Shown here piece after piece: positions 15,158 to 59,597 of a DNA stretch of 64,000 bases. Both the position numbers and the translations under genes were made by a program. A model generated the notes under the pieces. It saw nothing but the letters and a program-made list of their open reading frames with translations, was not told the origin of the DNA and did not search any database. The DNA comes from Cyanidioschyzon merolae. Its lineage: Eukaryota. Numbering within the stretch: the stretch's first letter is position 1; every line of letters begins with the position of its first letter. The stretch is from NCBI GenBank assembly GCA_000091205.1, contig AP006502.2, one strand, 5' to 3'.

Positions 15158-15182
15158 GTCGTCGTCGTCGTCAATCCAGCGG
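15158..15182. repeat. (CGT)n trinucleotide microsatellite
   Basis: 'cgtcgtcgtcgtcgtcgtcgtcgtc' encodes poly-Asp on the minus strand and poly-Ser on the plus strand, in ORFs that are probably spurious. Confidence 0.85.
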
Positions 15183-16607
15183 CGCGAGTTGCTGCACCCA
15201 CGAGTTGTCGTGAAACAGACAATATCGAAAAAGAGACGCATGCGTGATAAGCGCGTCCAACATGTCAGGAGCGGAGTATCACGCAGGCTTGTGCATATGA
15301 ACCTGATCATGGTATCGGTTGATTTTGGGAATCACTGATCGGAACGCGTCGCACACCATCGCGAGTCTCCGGGTACGTAACGAACGCCAGCGGCACAGCG
15401 TCAACGGGGGCACTTCGAAAAAGCAACCGGGCATCCTATCACGTACTATACATGCTTGGCCGTTTATTCCGGCAATCTGATTGTCGAGGCTGTACATCGA
15501 ATGCATCTAGGAAAAATTCGCAAGACAGACGCTGAGCGAGCAATACAATATCCGATTTTAAGCTGATACAGGTGTTTTCTCTGAACGCCCCACACGTTGC
15601 GGCCGGCGACAGTCTCGCGCTTGTCGCTCTGAGGACTCGCGATGCACGAGCTCGCAGGAACGTGCACCAGTGAGGTTAGTGAGCAAGAAACAACCTCCTG
15701 TGATCCTTTCATAAGAGGACAAATGCAGACCTTGACAGGGCGGCCCAGATACATTCGGGACTCTTCAGATCATGGACGTGGCCTTTGTGCCAATGACGCG
15801 CCCGACGGCCGCTCCAGTTCATGCAGAATCGAGGAAGGTGGACCCCCACAGAGATGCCATCAGTGACACACAAAAGTTATCCCACGAACATGGAGAGTAA
15901 ACACGTAGTCTCACTCACAGACCTCTCCCAGCATTTTTTGACAGGCCGTCTGCTATCGGCTGTAGCTTCTCTTTGTACACTTCGAGGCTGAGAGGCTACT
16001 TCACAAAGGTGGTTCGCGTCAGCACCACGTATCGTATGGAATTGATGGCGGCTACGAAGTCTCGGTTCACGAACTTCTTGTATTTATTGTATCTGCTTGA
16101 ACTCACCAATGCAAGGATTGCTAGAACACGTGCCCTCCGTACCACACCAGTCTCGTCATCATCCCGTGGGGCAAACACCTCTTCCCGCCTATCCCGCCTC
16201 TTCTTCTTCTTCCTCCTCGCTCTATCAAAGACCAGAAGAGGATTTTGCTCTTTCGTTTCTCTCCGGCACCCGATGACACCGGGAACTCCAGGATTCCCAA
16301 GTTACATCTCCATAACTTTCTCTTAGATTATGTATTTCTTCAAACGGACGCATTTCGAAAGCATCTTCCATACACCGCGAAATCGCATGATGAGACACGC
16401 ACCTGGTGATGGAACACCATTGGGATGAAATACTACAATCAGACTAATATGGACAATTTATGAAAGCATTTTGCCGCAGTCGCCGCCGGCACGTCCCACG
16501 CGAATCCCCGGGTTGACCTCGGGGGTCCATGGCAACAGCCTCCAAACGACAGCGAGCTTGCATGTCTCTTTTTCCGTAAGTTTCACACCAACCGCAGGCC
16601 GCTGATC

Positions 16608-25453: not shown

Positions 25454-27467
25454 AAGCGATCATCTCGGTGCCGGTTGTTTACGGATGTAGAATTCGGAGA
25501 GAGCGCGAGGAGCTCAGCGTTAACCGCGATTCTGGATAGCTCTCGAAGCTACGCATCTCACAAAGAGTTTTCCGTGGAAGTAAACCGACGGTTGCGAGTT
25601 TCCCAGTAAGAAATGGTGCTTGGAACAGTCGACTCGTTCGCAGGGCACGCTGGCGGTGAAGCGTATCTGAACGTTGCGACCGATTAGCCGCAATGTTATA
25701 TCGTAAAAGACTGAAACGGAAACCGAGTGGCGAATGCGAACTCCGACAGGTAGCTCTCGAATGCGTATGTTTGTATATCCAGTTCAGAATAAAACGGAAT
25801 GGGTCTCTGTATCGGATCGGTATGTACATGCTAAAATTGTGGTCGCTTCTCCGTGCTATCAGCACCAGACGTTGAGAGGTTTCTCTCTGGCTGCTCCATT
25901 GTCTTTTGCCTCCTGTATCCGGCTTTCAATCCGACTGTCTCTCCTGCGCCTCCATTTTCGGTTTCATCCGTCGAAGGTTGTCGATGGTGGTGTTCAAGTC
26001 CTGATTCCGCAGCTTTAGGCTCCTGTCAGGCATTTGATGCACAGGCGCAAGTTGCGATCGTTGCTTCACTTCCCGTGCTCATCTTGTTTATACGCAGCGT
26101 CTTTAAGCCCTTCGCACCGCTTTCATGATTATTCTCAGGCGCCCTGCATGTATCCAGAACTTTAACTCATCAGGGATGCTGCGCGGTGGAGCGTGAACAC
26201 ACGCCACTTCGCTCAGTGCATGCCCTTGACGGGAGCGGATGATACCGTGGAATTCCTTTGCTCGGTTTCGGCGCCTGGAGCCTTCGACTTCCAAAACGCA
26301 CTTTTTCTGAACGCTTTCCTGAACGAGTACTGAATCCGCTGGACAAGCAAGTCCAAGATGTTCCATTCGATCGTGGATTTCCGGAGCGCAATGCTTCCCA
26401 GGATGACTCAGGAGCCAGAGAGACCGTTGAGGCTGCAATACATGTCGAGAAACGCCGACCCGTCTAGGCTCCCTTCATGCACAGCGGTGACGCATGCCGC
26501 AGTCGAAGCTATCGCTGTGATAACGCAAGCCCGATTCCAAGACCCTTTCTCCCGTGCAATCAGAAGAGACGGGTCCCTTTGGTACCATATCGAATGAGAG
26601 GTACCATGCCGATTTGGAATTCGGTTTCACCAGTTGCCATACGGGAGACGTGGATTCGTCTGTGGAACGGGGCATCGATTATTTGACGTGACAAGCACAG
26701 TGAACACCCGGCATGCGCTTGTGAACAAGTCATCACGGGCGGCGTGGCGTATGTTTCCTCGTGCATCCACTGGAGAGCATTGCTGCGCCCATGAGCTTCC
26801 TTGAAACAGAGAGATCCAAATCTTGAAGCAAGCGAGATTTCAGTACGCGACACATAACGAATGGAGAAGCGTGGAGATTTGTCCATATGCGTTGGATTCT
26901 GATAACGCATATTTTACGAAAGCTTGTTCGTAGGCGAGATGGATCATCCAGGTTGCTGTATTCTAACGAATTCCGGGTAAGGGAATCCAGGGATGCACTC
27001 CAGGAAAACAACATATGAATCCGTTAGCTTTTGTTGCTGGATTCCGAATGTTGACGTTGTACATGTGAACGAATGTCGAAGAGTCGCAAGTCAAGAGCAG
27101 AGCGAGCACTGAAGCGTCCCGTTTTTATCGGACACTAGTGCGGACAAAGCTTCTACTTCTCAACAATTGCTGCGCTTTTTCGATCGATAACCCAAGCAAC
27201 TCGATGGTTTACAGGTACTTGGTCGTGGTCTGGCTCCCGGCCCCCGGTAGAGAGTGACGCTCACCAAACAATACGCTAACGTGCTGCGCATGTTCAGCTG
27301 ACGAGACGGCTTTTACGACATGATCTGTGATCTAATGTCTATGCGATACTCCGATGCGCATCCTCTACGCCGCTGCACCAACAGGGAAAGCAGGCTCGCG
27401 TCTCAGCAACACACACAGCTCCAGTTCAGAAAGCGACAAGCCTCATGTCGCATAGCGTGCAATTGGC

Positions 27468-34380: not shown

Positions 34381-37300
34381 TCACGATGTACCCGCTCCAT
34401 CGCGACCGCTGTCATCAGCGATACCTCCGGTCACATCGTCATCATCGTCAAGAGTCAGGTTGCCGAGGTCTACCTCGCGCGCCATGCTTGCCCGAGCTAT
34501 TTGCGCATAGATGCCATGAGCGCGCTCCATGAGTACGTAATGGGGTCCTTGCTCGACGACGTGTCCACTTTCGATGACACTAATCATGTCGGCAAAGTAG
34601 AGACTCTCGACGAGGTCGGCACGCAGCACGAAAACGACAGTGCGACCCGTGCAGATCGCTTTCAGGTCCAGTGCGACACCGTTCACCGTCATATCGAGCA
34701 ACGCCGCGTAACTCTCCGAGTCCAACAGAAGCATACTCGGATTACGGAGAAGGACGCGTGCAATGCCCAGCGCCTGCAACTGCGACGACGTGAAAAGCGC
34801 CTGTGCCGTTCTCGCTGATGGAACCATGGTCTGGTATCCGTTCGCAAGACGTAGAATCACCTCATGCATACCGACTAACGAGGCCGCACGGCGTACTTCC
34901 GCAAAGCATGTCCCAGTAGCACCAAAAGCGATGTTCTCGAAAACAGTCAGGCCGGCAATGAGACGGCTACCACGCCAGGGCACCAAGCCTATGGCAGCCG
35001 TCAGGGCCGCAGATGTGTAATCCTGCATCGGGTGCTCGCCAAGCATGATCCTGCCGCTGTCGGGGCGGCGCTTACCCGAAAGTAGCTCCAAAAGCAGTCG
35101 CTCCTCGCGTCGTTTCCGTAGAATGATACAATGGATCTGGTGATGTTCGATGGTGAGGTTCAGACTATGAAACACGTACTGCGCATAACGGCTGCCGATA
35201 CCATGCCGCGGGACCTTAGGATCGAGCGTATATGACTCCGCAAAAGAGCCGAACGGGGTTCCTGGGGACTGTGCGGAGGCGGGTGCGCTCCCGCTACGGC
35301 CACTGGTGGTTGACGAGACGCCGCGATCCTCTTCAAGAGGCGATGCGGTGGATGAGGCTTTCGATGCCCAGTCCTCAGGATCGTCCTTGACCGAGACATT
35401 ATCGAAAACAACGCGTACGCAGCGGTCGTCGACGCGCAAAACAGTTCCCAATCCTGCCTGACTAGCATCAACGATATCGAGCACGAAATCCAGGTACGCA
35501 TAGAGGTTCTGGCGTGCGTGCGAGTAACGCACCAGATTCTCCGTCATTCGAAGCAAGCTGATAATAAGCATGATGGCGAACAGAATGGCGGTTACTAGAC
35601 GGCCGCTTGAGCGATGCTTCGTTCTGGCAAGATGCCCGCCAATATAAATACCCAATACCGCGAAAATAGCGAGCACGAGGCCAAACGTCAGACCGCGTAG
35701 CAAGGACTGCAAGAGGTTCAGCCGCGCATCATGTTCACGTTCCACATCCGTAAACTCGTAAAGCCGTTGGAACTCCTTCTGGAACTGTTCTAGATAGACG
35801 ACGTTCGGCAGCGCAGCTCGGGACAGTTGCAGAAACTCACGAGCTTTCCGTGCTGCTTCTTCGTACCGCTGCTGGGCCCTGCGTGTAACGAACAGCTGGA
35901 GCATGCCCAGACCAGCAAGAATGGGCGTCGTGCCCAGAAGCACCAAAGTCAGAAACCAACTTTCAATGATACCGAAAATAAAGCTGCTGATAGCCTGCGC
36001 TGCGTACAAAGCGACACTCGACAGGTGCTCCACAGCGTCCAATACAAGTAGCTCCATTCGATCCAGTGTGTTCTGTTCGAAGAGCCAGCGATCGAGTCGA
36101 TCCGTGCCGACACCCGTTGTCAAAAGAAGCGCAGCAAACGACCAGAGACGGAGTCGGTAACGGACACGGCGACCAATCGTACCAAGCGAGCGACTCTGCC
36201 AGAGAACTACAAACGCAGCGGCACCGCTGATCACCCCGAATCCGATAAGGTAGCGATGAATGCTCGACACTGGGTTTCCAGCGATCACACCGTAAAAGAT
36301 CTGTGCCCAGTAATTCACGACGTGCCCGAAAAGGAACAGATACGCGGGAAAAATAACGCCAGATGCAAGGGCTGCCAACAACCCACCGACTGTCAACAGA
36401 GGTGCATTGAGGAGCCACTGACGCGGTGATAAGAGGTTCGCGATACTCTTCAGTTCTGCTAGATTGCGCTCAACGGTGTCCGAATCCACGGAGCACGCAC
36501 AGAGCGAAAATCCACAACACTGGAAGAGACCGCATCGGCGATTCCAGAGGGGTGGCAACGCTGCACTCATCGCAGGTTCGTCGGCAGAATCTCCATTCGC
36601 ATCATGCTGAGGTAAAGACTCTTCTGCACACTGTTTGGTGGCAGTCGAACTGGAACCAAGCGCCTTCTTCATCGATTCCGCCAGGGTGCGCGCGTACAGC
36701 GAGCCATCCGGGTAGATCCCGTAGACAAGCATCGCATAATAATCCATAAAAAATTCGCCGTGATCCGGCGAACTTCGCAACTTCTTGTTGAACACGTGTC
36801 TGAGGGCCTTGAACTTACCAAAGCCCCGCATGGAATCACCAGCTGGAAGCGACGTGGAAGCTTGCGCATCGCCTGGATATCGGCCAGCGGGCCCTGCAGA
36901 GCCAAAAGACGGCGATGTTTTGGGAAAGGCAGCCTGCATCCCCTGACGTGCTGCAGCTAACTGTTTCCCCGATGGATGTGGACCCTGCGCAGGTTGCGCC
37001 CCCGCAATATCGTCAACTGTAATCGCCACTGCGTCTTGGTCAACCAAACTCCGATTCATGGCGGCTTGAAAGGTCCCGTGTACAGCGTCGCTCGCTGTGG
37101 CAGGCGGCGTACTCTTGTTGAGATACTTGCGTGGAACGTAGGTTGGCGGCTCGTCTTCAGACGATGCGGAAGACAACGCCGAAGACGAGAGGTGTCCCGC
37201 CGAGCCTGTGTCCCCTGTATGAGCACCTGCGACAACGTTGTTTGCGGAAATAAGGCCAGTTCGAGGCGCGCTTTCAGACTGCGCACTGCCGCCGTCTGCA

Positions 37301-37704
37301 GCTGCTGCCGCCGAAGCTGTGCCTGCGACAACGTGTCTCTCGTCCGTACCACTCTGAGCTGCTGAAGAGCCACTGCTCTCAACTATGCTGAGTGCATTCT
37401 CGACAGCACGACCTTGAACAACACCAGCGGGTTCCATAGGGTTTCCGTGGGTCTCGAGATTAGCAGCTGCGCCGCTTCGTGAGCTCCCAGTCGACCGGGT
37501 GCTCCCAGCTGCGTTTGGCCTAGTAATATCCTCCCGTCGCTCCCCTGGACCATTACGGTTCGCATCCATAAAGTATCCAGTTCCCTTGTACGGATTTCCC
37601 GTGACCTCCACTGGACAATAGCACAAGGGGAACCCAACAGAGCGTTGCGTTTGTTCGCAACCTGGTGCTGCGGCGAAGAAACCGCGAGTACGAATCTTCT
37701 TCAT
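34381..37704 (-). CDS. ABC-transporter-like membrane protein (TMD + degenerate, probably non-catalytic NBD) with long disordered N-terminus
   Basis: The ABC NBD fold is recognisable in the C-terminal ~250 aa, but the key motifs are degenerate. Walker A position reads 'IILRKRREERLLLELLSGKRRPDSGRIML'. The signature LSGGQ is replaced by 'SSQLQALGIARVLL'. Walker B 'LLLDEAT' is replaced by 'LLLDSESYAALD'. Six or more TM helices lie upstream. Confidence 0.6.
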   Translation of the reverse strand: MKKIRTRGFFAAAPGCEQTQRSVGFPLCYCPVEVTGNPYKGTGYFMDANRNGPGERREDITRPNAAGSTRSTGSSRSGAAANLETHGNPMEPAGVVQGRAVENALSIVESSGSSAAQSGTDERHVVAGTASAAAAADGGSAQSESAPRTGLISANNVVAGAHTGDTGSAGHLSSSALSSASSEDEPPTYVPRKYLNKSTPPATASDAVHGTFQAAMNRSLVDQDAVAITVDDIAGAQPAQGPHPSGKQLAAARQGMQAAFPKTSPSFGSAGPAGRYPGDAQASTSLPAGDSMRGFGKFKALRHVFNKKLRSSPDHGEFFMDYYAMLVYGIYPDGSLYARTLAESMKKALGSSSTATKQCAEESLPQHDANGDSADEPAMSAALPPLWNRRCGLFQCCGFSLCACSVDSDTVERNLAELKSIANLLSPRQWLLNAPLLTVGGLLAALASGVIFPAYLFLFGHVVNYWAQIFYGVIAGNPVSSIHRYLIGFGVISGAAAFVVLWQSRSLGTIGRRVRYRLRLWSFAALLLTTGVGTDRLDRWLFEQNTLDRMELLVLDAVEHLSSVALYAAQAISSFIFGIIESWFLTLVLLGTTPILAGLGMLQLFVTRRAQQRYEEAARKAREFLQLSRAALPNVVYLEQFQKEFQRLYEFTDVEREHDARLNLLQSLLRGLTFGLVLAIFAVLGIYIGGHLARTKHRSSGRLVTAILFAIMLIISLLRMTENLVRYSHARQNLYAYLDFVLDIVDASQAGLGTVLRVDDRCVRVVFDNVSVKDDPEDWASKASSTASPLEEDRGVSSTTSGRSGSAPASAQSPGTPFGSFAESYTLDPKVPRHGIGSRYAQYVFHSLNLTIEHHQIHCIILRKRREERLLLELLSGKRRPDSGRIMLGEHPMQDYTSAALTAAIGLVPWRGSRLIAGLTVFENIAFGATGTCFAEVRRAASLVGMHEVILRLANGYQTMVPSARTAQALFTSSQLQALGIARVLLRNPSMLLLDSESYAALLDMTVNGVALDLKAICTGRTVVFVLRADLVESLYFADMISVIESGHVVEQGPHYVLMERAHGIYAQIARASMAREVDLGNLTLDDDDDVTGGIADDSGRDGAGTS

Positions 37705-37774: not shown

Positions 37775-38528
37775 AACGGATCTCAAGATCGACGCTGATG
37801 CGCTGATACATATCGGAATTTGGACACGTGTGCTTCGCGGACCTCGTGTGTGCCTGCGTGCAACGTACATGAATCGGTACATTTCAGTTCGCAAGATCGA
37901 CGCTGATGCGCTGATACATATCGGAATATGGACACGTGTGCTTCGCGGACCTCGTGTGTGCCTGCGTGCAACGTACATGAATCGGTACATTTCAGTTCGC
38001 AAGATTGACGCTGATGCGCTGATACATATCGGAATATGGACACGTGTGCTTCGCGGACCTCGTGTGTGCCTGCGTGCAACGTACATGAATCGGTACATTT
38101 CAGTTCGCGAGATCGACGCTGATGCGCTGATACATATCGGAATATGGACACGTGTGCTTCGCGGACCTCGTGTGTGCCTGCGTGCAACGTACATGAATCG
38201 GTACATTTCAGTTCGCAAGATCGACGCTGATGCGCTGATACATATCGGAATATGGACACGTGTGCTTCGCGGACCTCGTGTGTGCCTGCGTGCAACGTAC
38301 ATGAATCGGTACATTTCAGTTCGCAAGATCGACGCTGATGCGCTGATACAAATCGGAATATGGACACGTGTGCTTCGCGGACCTCGTGTGTGCCTGCGTG
38401 CAACGTACATGAATCGGTACATTTCAGTTCGCGAGATCGACGCTGATGCGCTGATACATATCGGAATATGGACACGTGTGCTTCGCGGACCTCGTGTGTG
38501 CCTGCGTGCAACGTACATGAATCGGTAA
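37775..38528. repeat. minisatellite: ~7 tandem copies of a 108-bp unit
   Basis: The unit '...cgctgatacatatcggaatatggacacgtgtgcttcgcggacctcgtgtgtgcctgcgtgcaacgtacatgaatcggtacatttcagttcgc(a/g)agatcgacgctgatg' recurs at 37801, 37909, 38017, 38125, 38233, 38341 and 38449. It produces 36-aa periodic artefact ORFs on both strands. Confidence 0.95.
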
Positions 38529-40092: not shown

Positions 40093-41304
40093 TCAGACAC
40101 CAACAATCACTGGGACATGGTCGCCGCCCTGTTCAAGCACCACAGAGCGCGCTCGATGATACGCTTCTCCGTCGAGAGATACAAGTTGCGGTGGATCAAG
40201 CTTGATGCGTATCCACGAGCACTTGAAATATCGGCACGATTGATCGTGGATGTGCTGTCCTGACTCCAACTGGAACATGAACTGGGCCAGTCGGAGCCTT
40301 GATACACCGGCAGGCACCAACAGCACATCCATGCAGGCGTCGTGCGCGTTCGCCAACGGAGCGAACTGTGCCTGTGGCGAAGCGTGGGTAACGTTCATAA
40401 TCACAATGAGCACATACTCGCGTTGTGCAATTGTTTCCGTGAGTTCATCTGCAGTTCGCCATCCCATTTCGGATTGCGAATCACGAATCACGTGGCGATA
40501 CTCAATCGCAGCAGAGAAGACGCGCTTACGAAGAATATACCAGCCAGCTCCGATGTTGAAACGAATCTGTCCCAGGCAGCGCATCCGCTCCGTTCGGATG
40601 TCAAGGTCCGCCACCAAACCTATCGTCAGCGAAAGGAACGCATACCCATTGGAACGACCGTTCAAAGACGATCGCGAAGTCATACGTGACGACTCTGTGG
40701 AAACAGAGTCCGCCTCATCAGCCTCTTCACCGGAGTTGGAACGAGTTAGGAGCGGAGTGTTCTCGGAAGAGACAGCCTTTGGACGCCTCCTGAACCGCAG
40801 ACAACCACAACAACGGCGCTCTCGATAAGACTCCGTTTCTTTCGCCCAGGATTTCGCAGAAACATCCGTAATCTCGTAGTGAAAGGCGTCTAGGCGCTCG
40901 CAAACCCCACAGAGCTCGCCACGTGACGTGCACTGGTGCAAGAGCGTCCCTATACGCCGGGCGGCCTCCAAAGCATCAACGACACCGAACGAAGCGGCGA
41001 GTCCGTTTCCCGTGCCCAGCGGAATGATACCCAAAGGTACTTCTGTTCCATACAAAACGTTTGCGACCTGGTGGAAAGTACCGTCACCACCGACACAGAG
41101 GACTGCCAGGGGCTCGCTCGGCGCAAACACGGCAGCTCGGGTTGGCAGGTCATCAGGAAACTGGGTCCAGAACTCCTCTATTTCTAGAGAAGGCTCGGCT
41201 GCAAGTAAAGTACGCTTGACCTCCTCCCAACGGCGTTTGACAGCTTGAAAATTCTTGCCCCCGCTCCTGCTGTTAATTACGACAAACAGGCGTTTCGTTA
41301 CCAT
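40093..41304 (-). CDS. lipid kinase with diacylglycerol-kinase catalytic domain (sphingosine/ceramide kinase-like)
   Basis: The DAGK_cat motifs are 'RLFVVINSRSGGKN', 'VLCVGGDGTFHQVANVL' and 'LGIIPLGTGNGLAASFG'. Confidence 0.8.
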   Translation of the reverse strand: MVTKRLFVVINSRSGGKNFQAVKRRWEEVKRTLLAAEPSLEIEEFWTQFPDDLPTRAAVFAPSEPLAVLCVGGDGTFHQVANVLYGTEVPLGIIPLGTGNGLAASFGVVDALEAARRIGTLLHQCTSRGELCGVCERLDAFHYEITDVSAKSWAKETESYRERRCCGCLRFRRRPKAVSSENTPLLTRSNSGEEADEADSVSTESSRMTSRSSLNGRSNGYAFLSLTIGLVADLDIRTERMRCLGQIRFNIGAGWYILRKRVFSAAIEYRHVIRDSQSEMGWRTADELTETIAQREYVLIVIMNVTHASPQAQFAPLANAHDACMDVLLVPAGVSRLRLAQFMFQLESGQHIHDQSCRYFKCSWIRIKLDPPQLVSLDGEAYHRARSVVLEQGGDHVPVIVGV

Positions 41305-41689
41305 CGAAAAAGCAGACGGAGTTGCAATGACGGGCAGTGGTCAGTGCGAGTTTCGCGATTCCCGTACAGGAGCCAAATCAAAACGGTACACCAGAGTGCT
41401 CGCGCTGTTCCTGCCTTGAGCATTTTTTTCGAAGTTTTGTTTGATGTTCAGTCTCTATTCTTGAAGTGGAGTTATTGGTGAATGAAAGATTTATACTAGG
41501 GTCTAGGTTGGTCAACCGCTCGCTCGGAGTGAAACCTTCGACGTTTTGTTGCCTCTGAAATTTGTGACCTCATAGACGACACAATAAAGCGGAATTCAAT
41601 TGAATATGGGTTCGTAAAATATCCGGTATCATTATCTAGTTCATACCTACAAACCTCCACGGTTCTGCTCCAGAGTTGTGTGTCGCATG

Positions 41690-41950
41690 CTCAAATGGCA
41701 TATTCTTCAAGTTTTTCGAATACCCGCGTGCGTAGTTGTGTGTGTACGTTCATATGCGGTTGCCTATCAGTTTACGTGTGTGCACGCATGTGTACCCGCA
41801 TTTGTTCATGTGCATGGATGTATATCCATAAAGGCGTGTGAGCGTCTTTATTCTTATGTGCGTATGAGTGTCTTTATGTGCATGGGCGTACGCGGATGCG
41901 TGTTCATGTGCATGTGTGTGTGTGTGTGGACGCGCCACTGTCGCCTCCCG
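41690..41950. repeat. degenerate GT/CATGTG-rich alternating purine-pyrimidine low-complexity tract
   Basis: Strings such as 'gtgtgtgcacgcatgtgtacccgcatttgttcatgtgcatggatg...catgtgcatgtgtgtgtgtgtgtgg' fill the interval. They produce His/Thr/Cys-rich artefact ORFs. Confidence 0.85.
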
Positions 41951-42318
41951 GAGCACTTCATACGAGAATAGGTGTTCTGCATGTCTGCGAGTCTCTCGTT
42001 TTGTCCTGAGCTATTCAGATAGCGAGCTTCGGACTCGAAAGGCGGGACATCCGGCGTTCAACATTGCCGGGAAGCCACCAATCGATGGTGATGGCGATGA
42101 CGATGATAAAGAAACCCCTTGAGGCCCATCACATTTTCAAGAGCTCCGCTGTAGCCTGCGCGTCTACGCCGTCCCTACGTGCAGGTTTTCGCAAACGTGG
42201 CAAAAGTGATGTGTCGACTCCTTCGTGAACAGAGGTTTGGATCGCTGCGCTTGTGATCACGATAATCGGGTCCGCATACCAGCTCGCAGAGTTACCACCG
42301 CTGCGCGACCTCGGTGCG

Positions 42319-43986
42319 TCAGAGAACAAAGCGGCTTAGATCCGTTTTCAGCAGCATGCCACCAAGCGCATCGCGAACATTCATCACGTCAATGAGAACT
42401 CGTTGGCCTCGCATTTCCGGAGCCTCAAAGCTTATCGTTTCTATGATACGTTCCACAACCGTATGTAAACGACGTGCACCGATATTTTCCACCGTTGTGT
42501 TCACCTCTGCAGCAATCGCCGCCATTTCGTGAATAGCTGCATCCGTGAACTCAAGTTCGACGCCTTCGGTCCGAAGAAGTGCCACTTGTTGTTTCAGGAG
42601 CGAGTTCTCTGGTTCGGTGAGTATTCGGTACAGGTCCGCTTCGGTGAGACCTCTAAGCTCCACTCGAATCGGCAGACGACCTTGGAGCTCCGCCATGAGG
42701 TCACTAGGCTTACATTGATGAAAGGCTCCCGCAGCGACGAAGAGAATATGATCAGTATTCACGTTTCCGTACTTTGTGGAAACGGTGGTGCCTTCCAGAA
42801 GCGGCAATAGATCGCGCTGCACGCCCTCCGCCGAAGCATCCGCTCCGTGTCGGTAATGGCTTGGCGTACAGATCTTGTCGATTTCATCGAGAAAAACGAT
42901 ACCATCCTGTTCGGTAAGCTGAAGCGCCTGGCGGGTCAGGCTCTCATCCGAAAGTAAGCGCTCTGCTTCTGCCTCCTCGATGACGCGACGGGCATCCCGA
43001 ATTTTCATCCGCCGTTTGGAGGATGAATTCCCTCCAGCTCCGCTTCGCTGGACAGTAAAGATGCGATCAAGGCTGCGAATCATCTCCGTCATGCGCTCGG
43101 CACTGGCGTCACCGAGCTGCAGGAATCCCGGTCGATTCGAAAGCGGACGTGTTTCTTCGACCTCGATTTCGCGATCCTCCAAGGCACCTTTTCGCAGAAG
43201 ACTTCGGAAGGATTCACGGGTCGACTCGCGGGCTGCCGGACCGGTCAACTCATCGAGGATACGATCCTCCACGAGCTTGTCCAGTTCATTTTTGAGTCGC
43301 TTACGTTGTTTCTGTTTCACGAGAGAAATCGCGTTCTCGACCAAGTCTCGAATGATTTGATCCACATCACGTCCATGGAAACCAACTTCTGTGTATTTAG
43401 ACGCTTCAGTTTTCACGAACGGAGCGTCGACGAGCTTTGCAAGCCTTCGTGCGATCTCTGACTTGCCAACACCAGTGGGTCCGCACAGTAGAATGTTCTT
43501 AGGAGCAACCTCTTCCCGCAGTTCTGGAGGCAGCTGGTGGCGGCGCCAACGGTTTCGCAGTGCAATAGCCATGGCACGTTTTGCTTCCGTCTGACCAACA
43601 ATAAAGCGGTCTAGCTCCGCAACTACCGCACGAGGCGTAAGTGCTCCCGTAGCGTCCGGTTGTTCTGAGGGCGTCTCGGAGGTCGCAACAGAGTCGGGCT
43701 GGTGAAGCGACGAGAGGCTATCGTCTACGTTCACAGTGTGACGGTCACCAGAAGAGCATACGCTTCGTACACTCGTTCTGTACGTGAGTGAGACTGTTGA
43801 AGACGAAGGCCTTTGCAACGAAAAGCGATGTTGAGAAAACGAAGCAACGCTTCGTAGCCACAAGCGTTGCCTCGAAACGCTTCCATTGTGCTTGGTGAAC
43901 GTCCGGATGTAGCGAGTTATAGAAGAGAGTTCAGCTCTACTGTTTAAACGCATCTCTTGCGATAAACAGTAGCACACCTTCGGCAA
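42319..43986 (-). CDS. hslU: ATP-dependent protease ATPase subunit HslU (ClpY) homologue with ~110-aa N-terminal extension
   Basis: Near-colinear with bacterial HslU: 'IVGQTEAKRAMAIALRNRWRR', 'PKNILLCGPTGVGKSEIARRLAKLVDAPFVKTEASKYTEVGFHGRDVDQIIRDL', 'GIVFLDEIDKI' and the I-domain insertion. Confidence 0.9.
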   Translation of the reverse strand: MPKVCYCLSQEMRLNSRAELSSITRYIRTFTKHNGSVSRQRLWLRSVASFSQHRFSLQRPSSSTVSLTYRTSVRSVCSSGDRHTVNVDDSLSSLHQPDSVATSETPSEQPDATGALTPRAVVAELDRFIVGQTEAKRAMAIALRNRWRRHQLPPELREEVAPKNILLCGPTGVGKSEIARRLAKLVDAPFVKTEASKYTEVGFHGRDVDQIIRDLVENAISLVKQKQRKRLKNELDKLVEDRILDELTGPAARESTRESFRSLLRKGALEDREIEVEETRPLSNRPGFLQLGDASAERMTEMIRSLDRIFTVQRSGAGGNSSSKRRMKIRDARRVIEEAEAERLLSDESLTRQALQLTEQDGIVFLDEIDKICTPSHYRHGADASAEGVQRDLLPLLEGTTVSTKYGNVNTDHILFVAAGAFHQCKPSDLMAELQGRLPIRVELRGLTEADLYRILTEPENSLLKQQVALLRTEGVELEFTDAAIHEMAAIAAEVNTTVENIGARRLHTVVERIIETISFEAPEMRGQRVLIDVMNVRDALGGMLLKTDLSRFVL

Positions 43987-44310
43987 TAGCTATCACGCAG
44001 GGTGAACAGAGAATAGCAAATCCCGTTACTGCGGAGAGTTCGAGGCGGGCTCGCGCTATGCGGCGCGTACGAGCTGGCTGCGCTACCAGTCCGGCGAGCG
44101 CGACACTCGCTTTTCGACATGGAAGACCACATATCCATGTAAGCATAAAATGGAACCGGTCAATAAATCTAATCGGGAGTAAGCATTAATGTTGGCGTCT
44201 TTTCTCATTGTCATCAATAACAGCTTTTACGTGTCTTTTCCGCGACTGCTCCTTTGTTCTCTGTTGTATCTCCGGCATGAGATTCGTCGATCTCTATTTT
44301 TCCATCAAGC

Positions 44311-45520
44311 TCAATCGTCAGCAGTCGAAGTGTGTTGAAGGCAACTTCCTAGTCCCGATCTCGCCGCCTCCGGCTCTTGTCAAAGTACTACATGCACGGC
44401 CGGAAGCTGTAATCTACGCTTCGCCTGCCATTTTCATCTTCTTTAGATAAAGCAAAAGTGCGCCCTTCAGCGCCGCGGTCCTTGACTGTGTTCAGCTGTT
44501 CCCAAACGACCATCACATGACCTCCGAGCGCCATCCTGTGTCAGTTGAAGGCACGCCGCATCGCCCGGTACGGGACCGGTACAGTGCGCTCCGCTCGATA
44601 CCTTCTTCCGTGTCTCCGGCCACTGCCGAACCCTGCGATGACGGGCTTCTGCTGCACGATACCCTCGAGGAGTACGTTTTGCGCTACGTGCGCAAGCGCG
44701 CGCTGTTCCACGTAACAGAGGATCCGCGGAAAGCAACGCTGTCCGCAAGGAAACAAGAACCCCGAGAGAAGTCCAGTTTCGAGAAGTGACATATAAGTTT
44801 TCACTCCGTCTACGGTCCCTCCTTGCAAAACGACGACACGTTCTCCAGTCGAAACAACCGTTGCGATGTCTCAAGTCCGGGTCCAACACCCGATGCTCAT
44901 GCAGACAGAACAGCCGGGAGCAGCCTCTGGAGGCATATCCCTCGAACGGTAACCAGCTGGTGCTGCGGAACCCTGTATCGTTGATGGCCGCGAAGAGAGG
45001 AGCGTTTCTCTTCCCTACCTTGTCGACTATTAGATCACGTAGGGAAGATCAGTGAAATTGCGGCATGGACAGGCGAGCGAGTCCTCAGTGAACGATGTCG
45101 AGTTGCTTTTGTCGTCCGTCCAGTGGCGTGCAGAACTGCGCACATGCGTCGCCTTGAGGCAGCAAGGTCGGAAACTTGAAGAACGTGTCACTTGGGCGTG
45201 CGACGCATAAAGCTAAAAGAGAAGAACGGAGGTTTGTGTGTGTGTTTCTGTGAACTGAATTATGATACCGGATAGTTTACCAACCCATATTCATTCGAAT
45301 CCCGCTACATTCCGTCAACTACGACCTTCCAAAGTTCAGGGGCAGCAAGGCGTCGAAGGTTTCACTCCGAACAGACAGTCGAGCAACCTAGACCTTGGCG
45401 TAAATGTTTCATCCAGGAATGATTCCACTTCAAATATGGAGACTATACATCAACCAAAATTTCGAGGAAGCTGCTCAAGGCTGGCATAGCGCGAGCACTT
45501 CGGTGTAACACTTTGATCCG
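44311..45520. repeat. direct repeat copy 1 (~1.2 kb) of a duplicated segment
   Basis: About 97% identical to 49403-50612, with a few substitutions and small indels. Both copies share a 90-aa ORF (44517-44789 / 49608-49880) and a 75-103-aa ORF. Confidence 0.9.
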
Positions 45521-46893
45521 ACGCTGGTGTAGCAAACGCGAACACTGAAATGTATGCCAGTGTCACCGGGTTCGCCAGATTCGCACACTGCCTCGATCGC
45601 TCGTCGCTTTAGCACCCCTAGCCTAATCATACTCTTGGAGGAACGGAGGTCTCGTGCATGCCTGCTTATCGCAACAGAGGATCCAGGGCTTGGTCTTATA
45701 TTCATTGACCTGATTCCATTGAGGAACAAGCTTTCCCGGGATGTTTCATGCATGACGCACGAACAGTGTAGCAACGCAACGGCACGAGAAATTCCGCGGC
45801 CGAACAGCTCCAGCAAGACCCAGTTGGTGTCTCCTGCAAAGCGAGGCCATCATATAGATGCGAGGGCTGGACCCAGGCTATCTCGAAAGAACGGAATACC
45901 TTCATGTCCGGAGCGCAACGAAAATGCCTCGCGCGATGGTATTTTCTGTAGAGAACGCACTTCATGGATCCGCGCTCTAGTTATTACAGTATAGTGCCTT
46001 CCTGTTTCACCGGTAGAAACGGTATATCGAGCGCGACGCCATTCAGTAAGTGGTATGGGCTGCTTCGACGCAGACAGTGTGTGGCGTCAACTGCGTGCAG
46101 TTCTACGCGACACGAGAACTCGACGCCTTCCTGCAGCACGATCTAGCCGCTGATTCGCTGATCGTGTATACTTGTGCGAATGCGTTGTCTGGTTGTCAGC
46201 ATCCTGTACACCAGGGATGCCTGGTGGAACATCCCGAGAAGCGGCCCGACGATTTTGCGCAATACGCGTCGTGGCTTACGCTCCAGGGCTCAGTGCCAGA
46301 GGGAAATGCGCAGCCTCTTTCACGAGAACTCGGCATGCTTTATTATCGAAGGAAGATAGAATGGTTAGAGCTGCCCATACCATCGCTGCAGTTTCCGACT
46401 CGGTTCTCAAGAGACCTGACCCGATGCGCTGAATACAGTTCACATAGGGTAAGCGAGTTTCGTTGGACTCCCACTCCAACAAGTCTACCAAGAGGTTCGC
46501 GCTTCCAATCTGACCACATAGGCTTCGCAAGGCTGTTTGAATGAGCGCTTGGATTTGATAAGGCTCAAGTCTCACGGGCACCGCAAAGTCGACGTCGAAC
46601 CTGAGGTACGCGAAGCGAGCAGGCAGCGTGCAGCAGGGTCGCAGCAGACGCATACCCGACACGTACCAAGAGACGCCTGTCCCGGTGAGCTGAACGCCTG
46701 ACGAGTCCCGATGCAGGCGCGCTAAAAGTGTTGCTTCGTGGTTCGTTAAGTGCTCGGCTTCGTCTCCAGGGCGGTCTTGAAAGCCCAGAGCTCACGAAGA
46801 CGTTGCTAGGATTCTGTTGACTGGGGCTAGCTCCGAAAGACCGTGTGTTCTTGCGACATTTCCGAATATCATTGACAGAGGCTGGCTGCTGGC

Positions 46894-48264
46894 TTGCGTC
46901 GGTTTATCTCAGACATTTATGGATACAATGGACATTGCACATCTTGCCGTCTCCTGGCGACGGCTGGCAACGGCTCTGTCTGCGACAAACGGAACCCGTT
47001 CGAGCATCCGCGCTCCTTGCAGACTCAGAAGCATCTGATTTTGTACGTTACAGTTGCAATTCATCAACGGGCTTTTTGCTATGGTTGCTGCGTTATCCTT
47101 GCACGTTCATTCTCATTTTCCGACGTTTTCACGTCACTTGTAGAGCTTATGGAACTGGACGTGCCTCTTGATGCACAAACGCAGAAACACTGGCGCTCCT
47201 GTGAAAGGCGAGTTGCTGACGCTTTGCGGGTGCTGCAACACGGCGCACTGCGCGGGGAGCGGGATCTCGTTCACGCCATTATCTACCGCAATGCGAACCA
47301 GCACCACAAACACGCCTACTTCCAAGGGCTTCGAAGCGCAGTGCGGGCGCTGGATCGCTTGGACGCTGCGTTTGCTGCACAGAAAGGAAGCTTCGCTCGA
47401 GGAACTCTGCAACTTGATGAGAGCAACTGGCTTGCCGCCCTGGCTCAACTGGATCAGGTACTCATACAGCACCTGTACTCGCGGCAGGAGGTCCAAAAGC
47501 GGCCGCCGCAAGTCACACACCCGCACGGGACGAACGCCTCGTCAGCCCCGGCCCTGCAGTTGTCTTTGGAGACGATAGCAAACGCACTGGAGCCTTTGTT
47601 GGAGGTTGCTATTGAGTGGCTTGCAGTTGTGCGTCACCGACTGCGCATCAGTTTTAAACACGCTTGGCACCACTTGGTCCTGCGTGCGAATTTCCTAGCG
47701 CTGGGCATGGCCCTTGTGGCAGCTGCAGGTCGGCTGCACGCAATCGTAGAGCGGGCGATGGAGAGTCTGACACACGCCCGCTGCCATTTGCACTGGATTC
47801 GAAAAACGCGTCAGAAGCATGCTCGACATGCCAGTACTCGTGAAAAGCGTCCGCAACAGCACCCATCGCGATCAGCGCAAAAAGCTGATCAGTTGCGAGA
47901 GCCAGTCAGCTCTGGAAGGCAACAGAGGCACGCAGGCATCACGCGTTCAACCGGTGTCATCGTCACGGGTTCTATCGAGGCACATGCGAGGATGCGCAGC
48001 ACGAACGACGAACCTTTACATGCAGCTCCTTCTCTGTATCACGCGTTAGAGGCGACACGCTCGCGCACCTCCGAATGGAGCGCCGCCCCTAACGTTTTTT
48101 CGACCTCGCCTCCTGATCGCGCTGCACCGCAGCGGACTCGGGAAGAAGAGCCCGCAGAGACCATGCCGCGAAGCCATTCAGTAGACAGCCTTGATGAGAT
48201 ATTTGCAGCGGCGGAAGCGTCGGAGGCCGACAGTCTTGAGCACCTGAGGCGTTATATTGACTGA
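46894..48264 (+). CDS. hypothetical protein (456-aa ORF) located between the two 1.2-kb direct repeats
   Basis: Long stop-free frame with no recognisable motif and no RT, integrase or gag signatures. Confidence 0.3.
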   Translation: MRRFISDIYGYNGHCTSCRLLATAGNGSVCDKRNPFEHPRSLQTQKHLILYVTVAIHQRAFCYGCCVILARSFSFSDVFTSLVELMELDVPLDAQTQKHWRSCERRVADALRVLQHGALRGERDLVHAIIYRNANQHHKHAYFQGLRSAVRALDRLDAAFAAQKGSFARGTLQLDESNWLAALAQLDQVLIQHLYSRQEVQKRPPQVTHPHGTNASSAPALQLSLETIANALEPLLEVAIEWLAVVRHRLRISFKHAWHHLVLRANFLALGMALVAAAGRLHAIVERAMESLTHARCHLHWIRKTRQKHARHASTREKRPQQHPSRSAQKADQLREPVSSGRQQRHAGITRSTGVIVTGSIEAHARMRSTNDEPLHAAPSLYHALEATRSRTSEWSAAPNVFSTSPPDRAAPQRTREEEPAETMPRSHSVDSLDEIFAAAEASEADSLEHLRRYID

Positions 48265-49402
48265 ATAGTGACGAAGGGAAGGCACTTGATGGGATAGAGC
48301 CACAGGTTTGCATTTGTGACCCGTCCTGGGCCAGCTTAAACTGTCGCAGACGATACGGTCATGTCTCGTCGCAGACGATACGCATTCCAAATCGGAGGAT
48401 ACAGGAAATCACAGAATACGCATGTAACTATTGTTTTCCGCGCGAATGATTCTGGCTGGAGGTTTTTGACGTTGCATCGAGCGGGGCTTGGAACGTCGAA
48501 GTAATCGGAAGCAGCAGCCCGCTTCTATTAGCTTTCTCGCCGGTGGTGCATTCCTTTCTGTGTCAAAACCGAACACTTGAACAGCTCCAGCAGTGCTCGT
48601 TTGTCTCCTGGAAACAAATGCGTGTACATGCGGATGCATCCTGTGCGGAGTTCTGTTCCGTCGGCTCTGCCTAGAGAACACGGGCTCGTAATTTAACAAG
48701 CCGCTCTTCTCTTTCCACGCGTAGAAGGCTAAGTATCCACCAACACGATCTGGAAGCGCGCTGTCTGTCGCCCCAGGGTCGCGGTTCCTAGTTTGAAGGC
48801 GCGCAGCACGGAACAGCCTCGCCATGACCTCGCAAGTGGTGTCGGGTCGCGCCTTGTGGACGCGCCACCATCATGTCTCTGTCCACATGCTGCAACTATG
48901 CCGTACAGAGCATTGAGTAGCACTGACTTGGTATACTACGTTTGTAAAATCAAGGTTCCGGTAAGCGCTCTAAAACTTAAGAACAGAAAGAACTCTTTGC
49001 AAATCCTCGTTGAGTCTCCGGGCGAAAGAATCTATTCGCTCCACCTGGGGCGCTCATGAAAATGTCCTTGTTCCTCGGCGCGACCTAGCCATGGGTAGCG
49101 TAGGATCTGAAGGCCCTATCCGAGCCCGAGCAAGCCACAAGTTCGAGCACGATAGGCATCAAGCGAGCTCTGCGCAGCAGGTCCGCGTCGGTATGTGTTT
49201 GGTAGCTGGCCATCACGTCCACATTCATATCAGAATAATATGGGACTGTTCCATATGCCTTACTCGGGTACATATGCTAACGATAAGGTATATTCCCACT
49301 ATGAGCAACATCAGCCTTTGCGGGCTTTTTCTGTGACCGCTTCCTTTTCCTCTCTCCTCTCTTCGACTTTAAAATGAGCTGGGCTCTACTGTCTTTCCTG
49401 AT

Positions 49403-50612
49403 CAATCGTCAGCAGTCGAAGTGTGTTGAAGGCAACTTCCTAGTCCCGATCTCGCCGCCTCCGGCTCTTGTCAAAGTACTACATGCACGGCCGGAAGCTG
49501 TAATCTACGCTTCGCCTGCCATTTTCATCTTCTTTAGATAAAGCAAAAGTGCGCCCTTCAGCGCCGCGGTCCTTGACTGTGTTCAGCTGTTCCCAAACGA
49601 CCATCACATGACCTCCGAGCGCCATCCTGCGTCAGTTGAAGGCACGCCGCATCGCCCGGTACGGGACCGGTACAGTGCGCTCCGCTCGATGCCTTCTTCT
49701 GTGTCTCCGGCCACTGCCGAACCCTGCGATGACGGGCTTCTGCTGCACGATACCCTCGAGGAGTACGTTTTGCGCTACGTGCGCAAGCGCGCGCTGTTCC
49801 ACGTAACAGAGGATCCGCGGAAAGCAACGCTGTCCGCAAGGAAACAAGAACCCCGAGAGAAGTCCAGTTTCGAGAAGTGACATATAAGTTTCATTCCGTC
49901 TACGGTCCCTCCGTGCAAAACGACGACACGTTCTCCAGTCGAAACAACCGTTGCGATGTCTCAAGTCCGGGTCCAACACCCGATGCTCATGCAGACAGAA
50001 CAGCCGGGAGCAGCCTCTGGAAGCATATCCCTCGAACGGTAACCAGCTGGTGCTGCGGAACCCTGTATCGTTGATGGCCGCGAAGAGAGGAGCATTTCTC
50101 TTCCCTACCTTGTCGACTATTAGATCACGTAGGGAAGATCAGTGAAATTGCGGCATGGACAGGCGAGCGAGTCCTCAGTGAACGATGTCGAGTTGCTTTT
50201 GTCGTCCGTCCAGTGGCGTGCAGAACTGCGCACATGCGTCGCCTTGAGGCAGCAAGGTTGGAAACTTGAAGAACGTGTCACTTGGGCGTGCGACGCATAA
50301 AGCTAAAAGAGAAGAACGGAGGTTTGTGTGTGTTTCTGTGAACTGGATTATGATACCGGATAGTTTACCAACCCATATGCAATCGAATCCCGCTACATTC
50401 CGTCAACTACGACCTTCCAAAGTTCAGGGGCAGCAAGGCGTCGAAGGTTTCACTCCGAACAGACAGTCGAGCAACCTAGACCTTGGTGTAAATGTTTCAT
50501 CCAGGAATGGTTCCACTTCAAATATAGAGGCTATACATCAACCAAAATTTCGAGGAAGCTGCTCAAGGCTGGCATAGCGCGAGCACTTTGGTGTTCCATT
50601 TTGATCTAACAC
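49403..50612. repeat. direct repeat copy 2 (~1.2 kb)
   Basis: See copy 1. The offset between copies is 5092 bp. Confidence 0.9.
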
Positions 50613-50696
50613 GACTTCAGCGCATTGAGCTCTGCGGTTCTCGGACAGCGCTCTTGGAACTGCGCCTACTTGTCTGCTTCCCTCACTTTACTGTAA

Positions 50697-51515
50697 ATGT
50701 CGAGGTTTTTGTCCCGAATATGGACTCGGGACGTGCTGCGAGCTTTCTGGGTCCAAGACCGACGGGTTCTACACCGATGTCTAGCTCCCGCTTCGTGTCG
50801 GCAGTGGCAGCTGCAGGGCTTCGGTTCGCGCAAACTCACCGATACGGCAGCGCGCTCGAAGGAGGAAGCAGAGACCGCTGCAGGTGGAGCGCCCCATGCG
50901 CAAACTCAGAGCGAAGTTCTCTCAACTATTGAGGCGCTATTGTCGAAACCGTGGACTGGAGAGTTTGAGGCAAACCTTGTGCCACTGGAGCCTCACCTGG
51001 AACGAGCAGCAACCATCTTAGCCCGCGAACAGGCGGACTGGCAGAAAGTTCAAGTCGCTACCGGTCCAAGTCCAACCGCTGAGGCCCGAGCGTTTGTACA
51101 CGACCTCCATTTGCTGTTCCTCGTCAAGGAAATGGCCCCGACAGCGTCTTTACTTGCAGAAACCGCCCTGGACCTTTTACGTTTGCGTATGGATGAGACC
51201 GGTTTCCTTGGCAGCCAAGTCAAACCGTCCAAGTCACAGCTAGAAAGCGAGATCGAGGACACAGTTCGTGCCTATGAGGCAGCAACACGCCGTCTAGAAT
51301 CTGCTAAAGAGAAAGCGGTTCGGGATGCTCCTATCCGCGAGCCGATTTGGAACGAGGCCATACGAAAATGGGAACTGGATGTAGGCATCCACATCCTGCA
51401 GCTGAGGCAAACCATCAGCATAGAGGGATACAGTGAACGGTTCGGAGCGATTGCAGGGCATCGCATTGTTCCAGCTAGAGTGGTGTCCATCGAGAAATCT
51501 GACTCCACAGGCTGA
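50697..51515 (+). CDS. hypothetical protein (272 aa, predicted coiled-coil-rich)
   Basis: Uninterrupted ORF immediately downstream of repeat copy 2, with no recognisable domain. Confidence 0.3.
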   Translation: MSRFLSRIWTRDVLRAFWVQDRRVLHRCLAPASCRQWQLQGFGSRKLTDTAARSKEEAETAAGGAPHAQTQSEVLSTIEALLSKPWTGEFEANLVPLEPHLERAATILAREQADWQKVQVATGPSPTAEARAFVHDLHLLFLVKEMAPTASLLAETALDLLRLRMDETGFLGSQVKPSKSQLESEIEDTVRAYEAATRRLESAKEKAVRDAPIREPIWNEAIRKWELDVGIHILQLRQTISIEGYSERFGAIAGHRIVPARVVSIEKSDSTG

Positions 51516-58313: not shown

Positions 58314-59597
58314 ATGGCGTTCTGTTGTGCAACATCAAGTCACATTTTTGTGACTATCGACTCCAGAATCCTACATGGCATCATGAGGGAGAACAGTCCG
58401 GAGTTCGATGTTAGCAGGGAGAACTTCACCGGTGAAAACCGGGAGACGTACTGGAAGAATATCTTCGATTTCAGATGTCTCAAAACAAGCAAGAAAAAGA
58501 ACTTCACTGAGATGATCGAAACCGATGGAGTAGCCATGTGTGTACACCATCGGCGCTTGAAGGCAGATCGTCCAGTTCCGCTCTCGACTTCGCCCTCGGC
58601 GAAGCATGAACATGAGTAGAGGACGGATCCTGCCACTCAGAAAGTGCAGGATCACGACCTTGTCGTTGGCGCAGCGGAGCATGAAGATGAGAAGGAGGCG
58701 GGTCTTGAGAAGCAGAAAGTGCAGGATGACGACTTTGTCGTTGGCGCAGACCCCCGAAACACAAATATCATAACGATCGCTGTACCTAAGCGTGCGGAAG
58801 ATGGCATTGACGGCAACTTATGTCAGAAAGACATACGTCTTTTGAGGTTCTCTAGAGCAAGATACTATCGAGAATCGGGAACCATGAATGCAAGGAAGAA
58901 AATCGACACATGGAATGGAGGAATGAAGGGTCACCTGGGAGCTTTGAGCGAAGTGACGAGCCGAGGAGCGGACTTTCGAGCTTTTCGGAAATTCATGGAG
59001 GTTCGCGTTGCTCATTGGGAGGTGCTGTGGAAAGAGTATACAAAGCCCCGGTCGGCTCGTTTGCGAATGAATCTATACAGTGGGAAGCAGCGGGCGTTTG
59101 CCAACTTTTTCAATCAGTTGAGTGCCTTGAAGGAGGACGAGAGTCAAAGGCTCGTAGTAGCGTATGGGACAGCGCACTGGGCGCCCAAGAAAGGCACTAA
59201 GCCAGCTCCAACGACAAGAACTTACGAGGAGTGCGCAAGGCGTTTTGTTACGATACCTATAGATGAGTTTCGAACATTGTATACACACCATGAGCTGGGG
59301 TGTATACTTCAAAGGGTCGAGATGGAAAAGAGCCAGTAGAGCCCTGAAGTTATAAAAAAGTACGGAGCACTGACGGAAGACCAAATGGAAAGGAGGGCGA
59401 GAGTTCGAGGATTGCTTGCACTAGTGAGTACAACTACCAGTGGCAAGAAACGCATGGAGTTTGTGAACCGCGAATTCAATGCCGCAATCAATATAAGGAA
59501 ATGTGCGGTGCTGGAGAAGAGACCTCCAGAGTTGGCGAGAGAGAATTTTGTTGGACAATCTCTCAAAGTCGAACTATATGAGAAAAAGTTGGAATAA
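58314..59597 (+). pseudogene. TnpB/Fanzor-like (OMEGA-family RuvC) nuclease gene remnant; one reading frame with two in-frame TAG codons
   Basis: One frame contains three ORF pieces: 58314-58619, 58644-59339 and 59385-59597. RuvC-I-like '[18 protein letters not shown]' lies at ~58734-58790. 'FVTIPIDEFRTLYTHHELGC' at ~59240-59305 resembles the TnpB 'V.VDP.YTSQ.CS.CG' block with cysteines lost. RuvC-III-like 'KRMEFVNREFNAAINI' at 59451-59495 matches 'R.F.C..CG...RD.NAA.NI' but with C to M/V and D to E changes. The in-frame TAGs are at 58617-58619 and 59337-59339. Confidence 0.6.

Follow-up and report, generated by a model that had tools for sequence, protein, structure and literature searches.

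We analyzed a 64,000-nucleotide (nt) stretch of Cyanidioschyzon merolae DNA (GenBank assembly GCA_000091205.1, contig AP006502.2), referred to below as the window, in which two near-identical direct repeats of about 1.2 kb, R1 and R2, lie 5.09 kb apart. An initial annotation had likened these repeats and the 3.9 kb between them to an element bounded by long terminal repeats (LTRs), and had named a tandem segmental duplication of a small gene and a non-autonomous element of an undescribed type as the alternatives. We found that each repeat lies in a separate, old member of a non-coding dispersed family with units of about 1.4 kb, and that R1 and R2 are not the ends of one element. The two members that contain them, c3 and c4, show a sharp step in identity within homologous sequence. 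The account that we consider probable as a whole is that c3 and c4 are old linked paralogues homogenized by ectopic gene conversion, that the genes they flank are resident, and that the family is a decayed element with terminal inverted repeats (TIRs).

Two near-identical repeats lie within older members of a dispersed family

A blastn alignment of 1208 positions gives R1 and R2 an identity of 98.2% (19 mismatches, 2 gap openings), a similarity far beyond chance, and a global alignment places 22 differing columns among 1208. The pair of near-identical direct repeats is thereby confirmed, with small shifts in coordinates and an identity slightly above the ~97% noted initially. The offset between the two is 5091 nt and drops to 5088 nt along the repeats. 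R1 begins with TCAATCGTCAGC and ends in ...TTTGATC, and the bases flanking R1 and R2 differ; target-site duplications, which had been suggested as a check on insertion, were looked for at the repeat borders and none was seen. Weaker similarity between c3 and c4, which the initial annotation had not noted, continues leftwards of the repeats to about 44120 and 49214 (44130 and 49220 by sensitive blastn), and sensitive blastn of the R1-bearing spacer against the window returned further, diverged matches at 14163-14954 and 25775-26882. We built a family profile from a four-way alignment of c1 to c4 and searched the window with nhmmer, which identified four full-length copies, all on the plus strand, together with one 3' fragment and no other match:

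14147-15573, plus strand: c1, full copy in the spacer between phosphoribosyl pyrophosphate (PRPP) synthetase and RNase PH-like genes; about 58-60% identical to c3 and c4
25764-27139, plus strand: c2, full copy downstream of CMT116C; about 58% identical to c3 and c4
41352-41715, minus strand: c5, the 3'-terminal ~345 nt only (nhmmer 41372-41715, profile positions 1060-1400, E=1.4e-66)
44120-45537, plus strand: c3, full copy containing R1 (nhmmer 44120-45528, profile positions 3-1406; the 3' TIR reaches about 45537)
44311-45518, plus strand: R1, high-identity and putatively converted tract in c3 (blastn, global alignment)
49214-50614, plus strand: c4, full copy containing R2 (nhmmer profile positions 5-1404)
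49402-50606, plus strand: R2, high-identity and putatively converted tract in c4 (blastn, global alignment)

The c3 copy aligns end to end with c1, c2, and c4, and pairs of family members other than c3/c4 are about 55-60% identical over the full 1.4 kb. Family members are uniform in length (1376-1427 nt), and the c5 fragment shares 73-78% identity with c3 and c4 at their 3' ends. Three unrelated metagenome contigs (L020-L022) each carry one distinct copy, matched by nhmmer at E=1e-122 to 1e-174 and 63-67% identical to the copies in the window, which brings the number of distinct copies in the window and these contigs to at least eight. We thus see diverged copies at unrelated sites that share common ends, as is characteristic of a dispersed family. 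Among the sequences found, the family is confined to C. merolae and to metagenome strains closely related to it, and the family profile had no match in the syntenic loci of other Cyanidiales. On L021, a nearly full copy (2282-3636) is followed by a short partial match (3681-3836, profile positions 153-286), so that family copies can be adjacent or nested elsewhere. A scan of metagenomes with an invariant 20-mer of the 3' core returned this locus only and is uninformative on copy number.

A sharp step in identity points to gene conversion between c3 and c4

The similarity of c3 and c4 is not uniform along their length. Their first ~190 nt differ in 88 of 191 columns (54% identity), compared with 22 of 1208 in the tract that follows; this initial stretch yields only 33-36 matches per block of 58-60 positions, and c3 and c4 are no closer to one another there than either is to c1 or c2. 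From 44311 on, the blocks contain 55-60 matches of 60 (98-99%), and after 45518, 10-20 nt short of the 3' end of the element, the identity returns to background, with about 10-30 nt of family homology left 3' of the tract. Every metagenome strain examined shows the same tract boundaries with the same diverged flanks. What we observe is therefore an abrupt change of identity in continuous homology, with older divergence on both sides, and both ends of the tract lie inside the element and match the older copy in exact homologous register.

Given that the tract begins and ends in register inside an older homologue, a recent insertion or duplication cannot explain it, and gene conversion can. For the recent origin that had been assigned to the repeats, a better reading is that two old copies were recently homogenized. 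Under this reading, an internal tract of 1208 nt would have been copied by ectopic gene conversion between c3 and c4, which lie in the same orientation 5.09 kb apart, or recurrent conversion would have kept the two alike. The background divergence of the family would have been left in place over the first ~190 nt and the last ~20 nt, and the genes between the copies are resident host genes that happen to sit there. Gene conversion as the mechanism, its direction, and the transposon origin of the family are what we infer.

The pair shares with known cases of ectopic (interlocus) gene conversion and concerted evolution a tract of 98-99% identity with sharp ends in an older, diverged homologue, as well as linked partners (5 kb) in direct orientation and patchy differences. 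It departs from them in its background divergence of ~42-46%, which is far over the usual limit for homologous recombination.

That background would favor a different, recent one-step event, in which a non-allelic duplication or replacement, for example through template switching or break-induced replication, copied 1.2 kb from one family member to the homologous site of the other: ordinary homologous recombination needs more than 55-60% identity, and the left boundary is sharp. Tract ends in exact register inside the element would nevertheless need homology-guided repair, and the outcome would then be indistinguishable from gene conversion. The differences within the tract are also unevenly spread, with 12 in the first 980 nt versus 10 in the last 228 nt (Fisher p=0.004), which suggests more than one event. 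We therefore consider a single replacement unlikely.

The family is non-coding

Both repeats contain a 90-amino-acid (aa) ORF (44517-44789 and 49608-49880) and a second ORF of 75 aa in R1 and 103 aa in R2 (45262-45489 and 50266-50577). The initial annotation was correct that these small ORFs are retained in both copies, although this follows simply from the repeats being 98% identical. Stops and frameshifts interrupt the stretches of c1, c2, and c5 that are homologous to the 90-aa and 75-aa ORFs. No copy pair or segment shows a three-base periodicity of substitutions, Pfam gave no convincing match for any ORF in any copy, and the protein search that had been proposed for the 90-aa ORF returned no relative beyond its own cluster. 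When the longest stop-to-stop frame (193 aa, on the minus strand of c3) was used as the query of an exhaustive phmmer search, only three other arginine-rich ORFs came back at E<=1e-3, and these sit on L020-L022, that is, on other copies of the family. We accordingly rejected both the small ORFs and the longer minus-strand ORFs as genes, given that they lack Pfam matches, homologues, and codon periodicity and are broken elsewhere, and we conclude that the family is non-coding. A 502-aa ORF (P0134) was likewise set aside as a protein; it is rich in Trp, Cys, and Arg, has no standard-code back-translation from its contig, and seems to have arisen as an artefact of an alternative genetic code.

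Searches for RNA genes gave the same picture. Rfam, at gathering and at permissive thresholds, and a tRNA search found nothing in or near the repeats, and we also considered an RNase P/MRP RNA gene beside the genes for protein subunits described below, without finding one. In each of c3, c4, and c5, the 3' end is followed after 26-91 nt by an ATG in the same orientation, which raised the idea of a promoter module, but this fails for c1 and c2.

These observations bear on whether the near-identity of R1 and R2 could have been kept by selection on a function, be it a non-coding RNA, a gene for a small protein, or a regulatory module that serves twice. The two ORFs that are intact in both copies, the position of three 3' ends just upstream of an ATG, and the uniform length of the family would all fit such a function. 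The ORFs are, however, disrupted in the other copies and have neither codon periodicity nor homologues, no RNA family matched even at a permissive threshold, and the position upstream of a gene is not shared by c1 and c2. Moreover, selection would not yield a sharp step from 54% to 99% within one element, and we regard this explanation as very improbable.

Consensus termini suggest a decayed class II element

The family consensus has terminal inverted repeats of ~20 nt (CCA(G)TGTCAGAWTAAAATGG). Its ends pair as CCA-TGTCAGAATAAAATGG against CCAGTGTCAGATTAAAATGG, in 19 of 20 aligned columns (with 1 mismatch and 1 gap), and this inverted repeat scores 30, whereas 2000 shuffled sequences score 13.4 +/- 2.7 and reach 24 at most, and internal windows do not exceed 20. 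A class II origin is most likely in light of this consensus terminal inverted repeat, and with moderate confidence we infer from the sequence that the family is a decayed, non-autonomous class II (DNA transposon-like) element. The suggestion of a non-autonomous element of an undescribed type consequently comes close for each unit alone, but not for the 6.3-kb whole of repeat, internal segment, and repeat.

With non-autonomous TIR (class II) families and long families akin to MITEs (miniature inverted-repeat transposable elements), the copies described here share dispersal at a uniform ~1.4 kb, the lack of coding sequence, a ~20-nt consensus TIR, and the presence of one truncated copy. They differ in having no recognizable target-site duplications, in that no autonomous partner or link to a transposase was found in the window and the contigs examined, in that the inverted repeat is not significant per copy, and in that 1.4 kb is long for a MITE. 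A survey of MITEs reported none in C. merolae (PMC3964958). The 5'-truncated c5 led us to consider a non-LTR retroposon as well, which we rejected for want of a poly(A) or simple-repeat tail or a target-site duplication.

Nozaki et al. (2007) described the C. merolae genome as being without LTR retrotransposons and as containing 26 non-LTR and 8 transposase-related elements, together with 253 copies of an interspersed repeat that they called novel (the WSV repeat), which average 3.2 kb and occur on all chromosomes (PMC1955436). The WSV repeat has weak BLASTX similarity to WSV486 of white spot syndrome virus (WSSV) and contains truncated or junk ORFs only (PMC1955436). Like the WSV repeat, the present family is interspersed in the same genome, of unexplained nature, and equipped with only truncated or junk ORFs; unlike it, as judged by the published description only, it has units of 1.4 kb, no coding signal, and 4-5 copies per 64 kb. 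In the literature on the WSV repeat, CMT124C, and CMT125, we found no annotation at the level of this locus.

The enclosed genes are resident host genes

The window comes from chromosome 20 of C. merolae 10D, and nearby ORFs exactly match BAM83133, CMT116C, CMT126C, CMT127C, and CMT128C. The genes closest to c3, c4, and c5 are as follows:

40093-41304, minus strand: sphingosine/diacylglycerol kinase-like gene; starts 48-68 nt beyond c5 and forms the left flank of the inversion described below
42319-43734, minus strand: HslU-type AAA+ ATPase gene, left neighbor of c3 (Pfam AAA_2, 1.6e-32; 471-aa call from contig L001)
46276-46653, minus strand: Rpp14/Pop5-family RNase P/MRP subunit gene, 125 aa (Pfam PF01900, E=6e-7)
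47149-48264, plus strand: CMT124C, 371 aa as annotated (the 456-aa ORF starts at 46894), possibly NEPRO_N/RMP1-like
50697-51515, plus strand: CMT126C, 272 aa; starts 83-91 nt 3' of c4 and forms the right flank of the inversion

The 456-aa ORF between the repeats, which had been taken for an orphan, is CMT124C and has orthologues in Cyanidiococcus and in a further Cyanidiales lineage. The translation of the window is identical to BAM83135 / XP_005539171 (P0025), the closest relatives form a 99%-identical hot-spring metagenome cluster that includes the 10D protein, and the orthologues P0002 and P0003, from Cyanidiococcus yangmingshanensis and the second Cyanidiales lineage, are 43% identical. 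Pfam matches to RMP1 and NEPRO_N are sub-threshold, and a profile of the three orthologues had no significant match in the PDB; the assignment of CMT124C to RMP1/NEPRO is therefore weak.

The second enclosed gene encodes a predicted Rpp14/Pop5-family protein that also matches the human Rpp14 chain 6AHR_H (E=3e-5) and has an orthologue in the same position in the Cyanidiococcus contig L011 and in L012. Its protein cluster contains JGI, Logan, and ENA records only, with no NCBI entry for C. merolae 10D, and the BAM accessions are consecutive across it (BAM83133, then presumably BAM83134 for HslU, then BAM83135 for CMT124C). Given the missing NCBI record and the consecutive accessions of its neighbors, the Rpp14/Pop5 gene appears to be missing from the C. 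merolae reference protein set. The Rpp14/Pop5 gene and CMT124C are divergent, with about 500 nt from the start of Pop5 to the annotated ATG at 47149, and the pairing is kept in relatives; the two may encode RNase P/MRP subunits under common regulation. Between CMT124C and CMT126C, right at c4, the numbering of locus tags passes over CMT125; the genome project may have used this number for something that does not encode a protein (a repeat, for instance, or a hypothetical transcript), and no paper that mentions CMT125 was found.

In relatives, the head-to-head Pop5/CMT124C pair beside HslU is conserved, the spacers are shorter and without the family, and by tblastx no part of the repeats or of the other spacer DNA is similar to the relatives' loci. 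Because the pair is conserved in relatives that lack the repeats, we conclude that Rpp14/Pop5 and CMT124C are resident host genes and not the cargo of an element.

This conclusion removes the interior that an LTR-type element would need. Such derivatives, including large retrotransposon derivatives (LARDs), TRIMs (terminal-repeat retrotransposons in miniature), and solo LTRs, resemble the present structure in geometry only, in that two direct repeats of ~1.2 kb enclose a few kilobases. They differ in the hallmarks that are absent here, in their interior, which here consists of two host genes in ancestral synteny, and in their repeat borders, which here fall inside an older element. The initial annotation had itself seen no TG...CA termini, primer-binding site, polypurine tract, or gag, reverse transcriptase (RT), or integrase (IN) motifs, and our reading of the sequence and Pfam searches bear this out: the repeats have no TG...CA ends, no 4-6 bp target-site duplication, and no primer-binding site or polypurine tract, and the 3.9 kb has no RT, IN, or gag match in Pfam and holds two genes whose orthologues are adjacent in L011 and L012. 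We therefore rejected an LTR retrotransposon, a LARD, and a solo LTR alike. Tandem segmental duplication of a small gene is not supported either: only the 1.2-kb tract is doubled, the window has the 3.9-kb interior just once, and neither of the small ORFs is a gene. We also rejected a Campbell-type integration, in which a circle would have brought in Pop5 and CMT124C, because these genes are in ancestral synteny.

Circular and deletion-type contigs are best explained as assembly artefacts

Metagenome contigs present the locus in several arrangements. L001 and L002, from strains about 99% identical, have the repeat-internal-repeat order of the reference, as does the Sanger-finished 10D sequence. 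L005-L007 are permuted, with CMT124C, then a repeat, then Pop5; L003 and L004, at 5213 nt each, have exact terminal overlaps of 123 nt and are thus equivalent to a circle of 5090 nt; and in L016 a single repeat links the left flank to the right flank, the internal segment being absent. The long contigs each contain two repeat copies that do not differ from one another, which is what the double use of one unitig would give. We consider the circular- and deletion-type contigs best explained as artefacts of repeat collapse during assembly.

The same contigs could be taken to mean that the 6.3-kb structure is mobile or excisable, either as an LTR-type or LARD element or as a cassette able to leave as a looped-out circle of 5.09 kb or to multiply in tandem, since both reciprocal junctions that recombination between direct repeats would give are present among them (L003-L007 and L016). 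Yet exactly these contig types are expected from a 1.2-kb repeat collapsed in a de Bruijn graph, and the 10D reference, L001, and L002 carry the full order. The internal genes are ancestral and in conserved synteny, their loss would probably be lethal in a haploid cell, and the structure lacks LTR hallmarks in a genome from which no LTR retrotransposons have been reported (PMC1955436). We give the idea of a mobile unit very little credence.

Four independent contigs (L005, L006, L007, and L010) end or start within 46583-47016, which covers the 5' end of Pop5 and the Pop5/CMT124C spacer, and this suggests a strain-variable or hard-to-assemble site.

Family copies sit at the breakpoints of a three-gene inversion

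In Cyanidiococcus (L011) and in L012-L014, the gene order is a 271-aa gene (minus), HslU (minus), Pop5 (minus), a CMT124C-like gene (plus), and the kinase gene (plus). By tblastx, the HslU-Pop5-CMT124C block of the window is co-linear with these loci while both of its flanks are reversed, which amounts to a three-gene inversion spanning 41305-50696. HslU is well conserved between the lineages, with 91% amino-acid identity to the Cyanidiococcus orthologue. The inverted 3' fragment c5 and the full-length c4 sit exactly at the two inversion breakpoints, and the ~345 nt that they share are 75-78% identical, compared with about 50% for c1 or c2 versus c3 in the same region.

The position of c4 and c5 would fit recombination between inverted copies. 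It would also fit an inversion with staggered breaks in which a full copy beside the kinase gene, formerly inverted, had its 3' end duplicated; this model predicts a fragment at the left breakpoint and a full copy at the right, as observed. Like known inversions flanked by inverted repeats, whether through non-allelic homologous recombination or through staggered breaks as in Drosophila, this one has inverted copies of ~345 nt at both breakpoints. It differs from them in that either lineage may carry the derived order and in that chance co-occurrence is not negligible: three of the five local spacers carry a copy, and the chance of finding inverted copies at both breakpoints is about 0.15.

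Other local repeats

The window contains further repeats besides the family. A 108-bp tandem repeat (37784-38527; 6.9 copies, 98% identical) occupies the spacer after an ATP-binding cassette (ABC) transporter-like gene (34381-37704, minus strand); ORFs cross it on both strands, and it also occurs at the edge of contig L016. At 3914-4170, a short direct repeat of 110 nt is present twice with a spacing of 147 nt and 98% identity, and at 58599-58748 there is a tandem pair of 75 nt with 81% identity.

Discussion

Several points weigh against the account that we prefer. Homologous recombination at only ~58% identity is strongly disfavored, and a single late conversion is mechanistically awkward. 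With so low a background identity, the account needs either continuous homogenization since c3 and c4 arose, with the edges escaping and diverging, or rare homeologous repair. In addition, c1 and c2, which lie 11.6 kb apart, show no homogenization. The DNA-transposon origin of the family is a weak part of the account: within single copies the terminal inverted repeat does not exceed shuffled sequences, so that it is significant at the consensus level only; no target-site duplications are visible at any of the four full copies, where they may have been eroded at ~40% divergence; and no transposase-encoding partner was identified in the 64-kb window or the contigs that we looked at. The copy number, finally, is that of the window and L020-L022. 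In favor of the account, C. merolae recombines homologous DNA efficiently (gene targeting).

Our results are mainly a correction, in that an LTR-like structure with "orphan" genes resolves into two old repeat copies that were probably homogenized around conserved genes related to RNase P/MRP. Taken as a whole, the finding is an ordinary one, and its points of interest are minor. The locus shows how near-identical repeats of 1.2 kb yield circular-looking and deletion-type contigs in metagenome assemblies, and it flags a probable Rpp14/Pop5 gene that is apparently missing from the reference protein set.

For the biology of C. merolae, the analysis documents, in a genome described as having hardly any transposons, a non-coding family whose consensus has terminal inverted repeats, along with what is probably a local case of concerted evolution and repeat copies at inversion breakpoints, in an organism used for gene targeting. 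A bolder reading, which we consider rather unlikely, is that the family is an unclassified, TIR-bounded non-autonomous DNA element that is actively reshaping the genome through linked copies, by conversion, perhaps by inversion, and perhaps by the looping out or amplification of a cassette. If this were true, copies of the family would homogenize one another by conversion and may have mediated the inversion of HslU, Pop5, and CMT124C, and if the circular and deletion-type contigs were in addition not artefacts, natural populations might loop out or amplify a 5.09-kb Pop5-CMT124C cassette.

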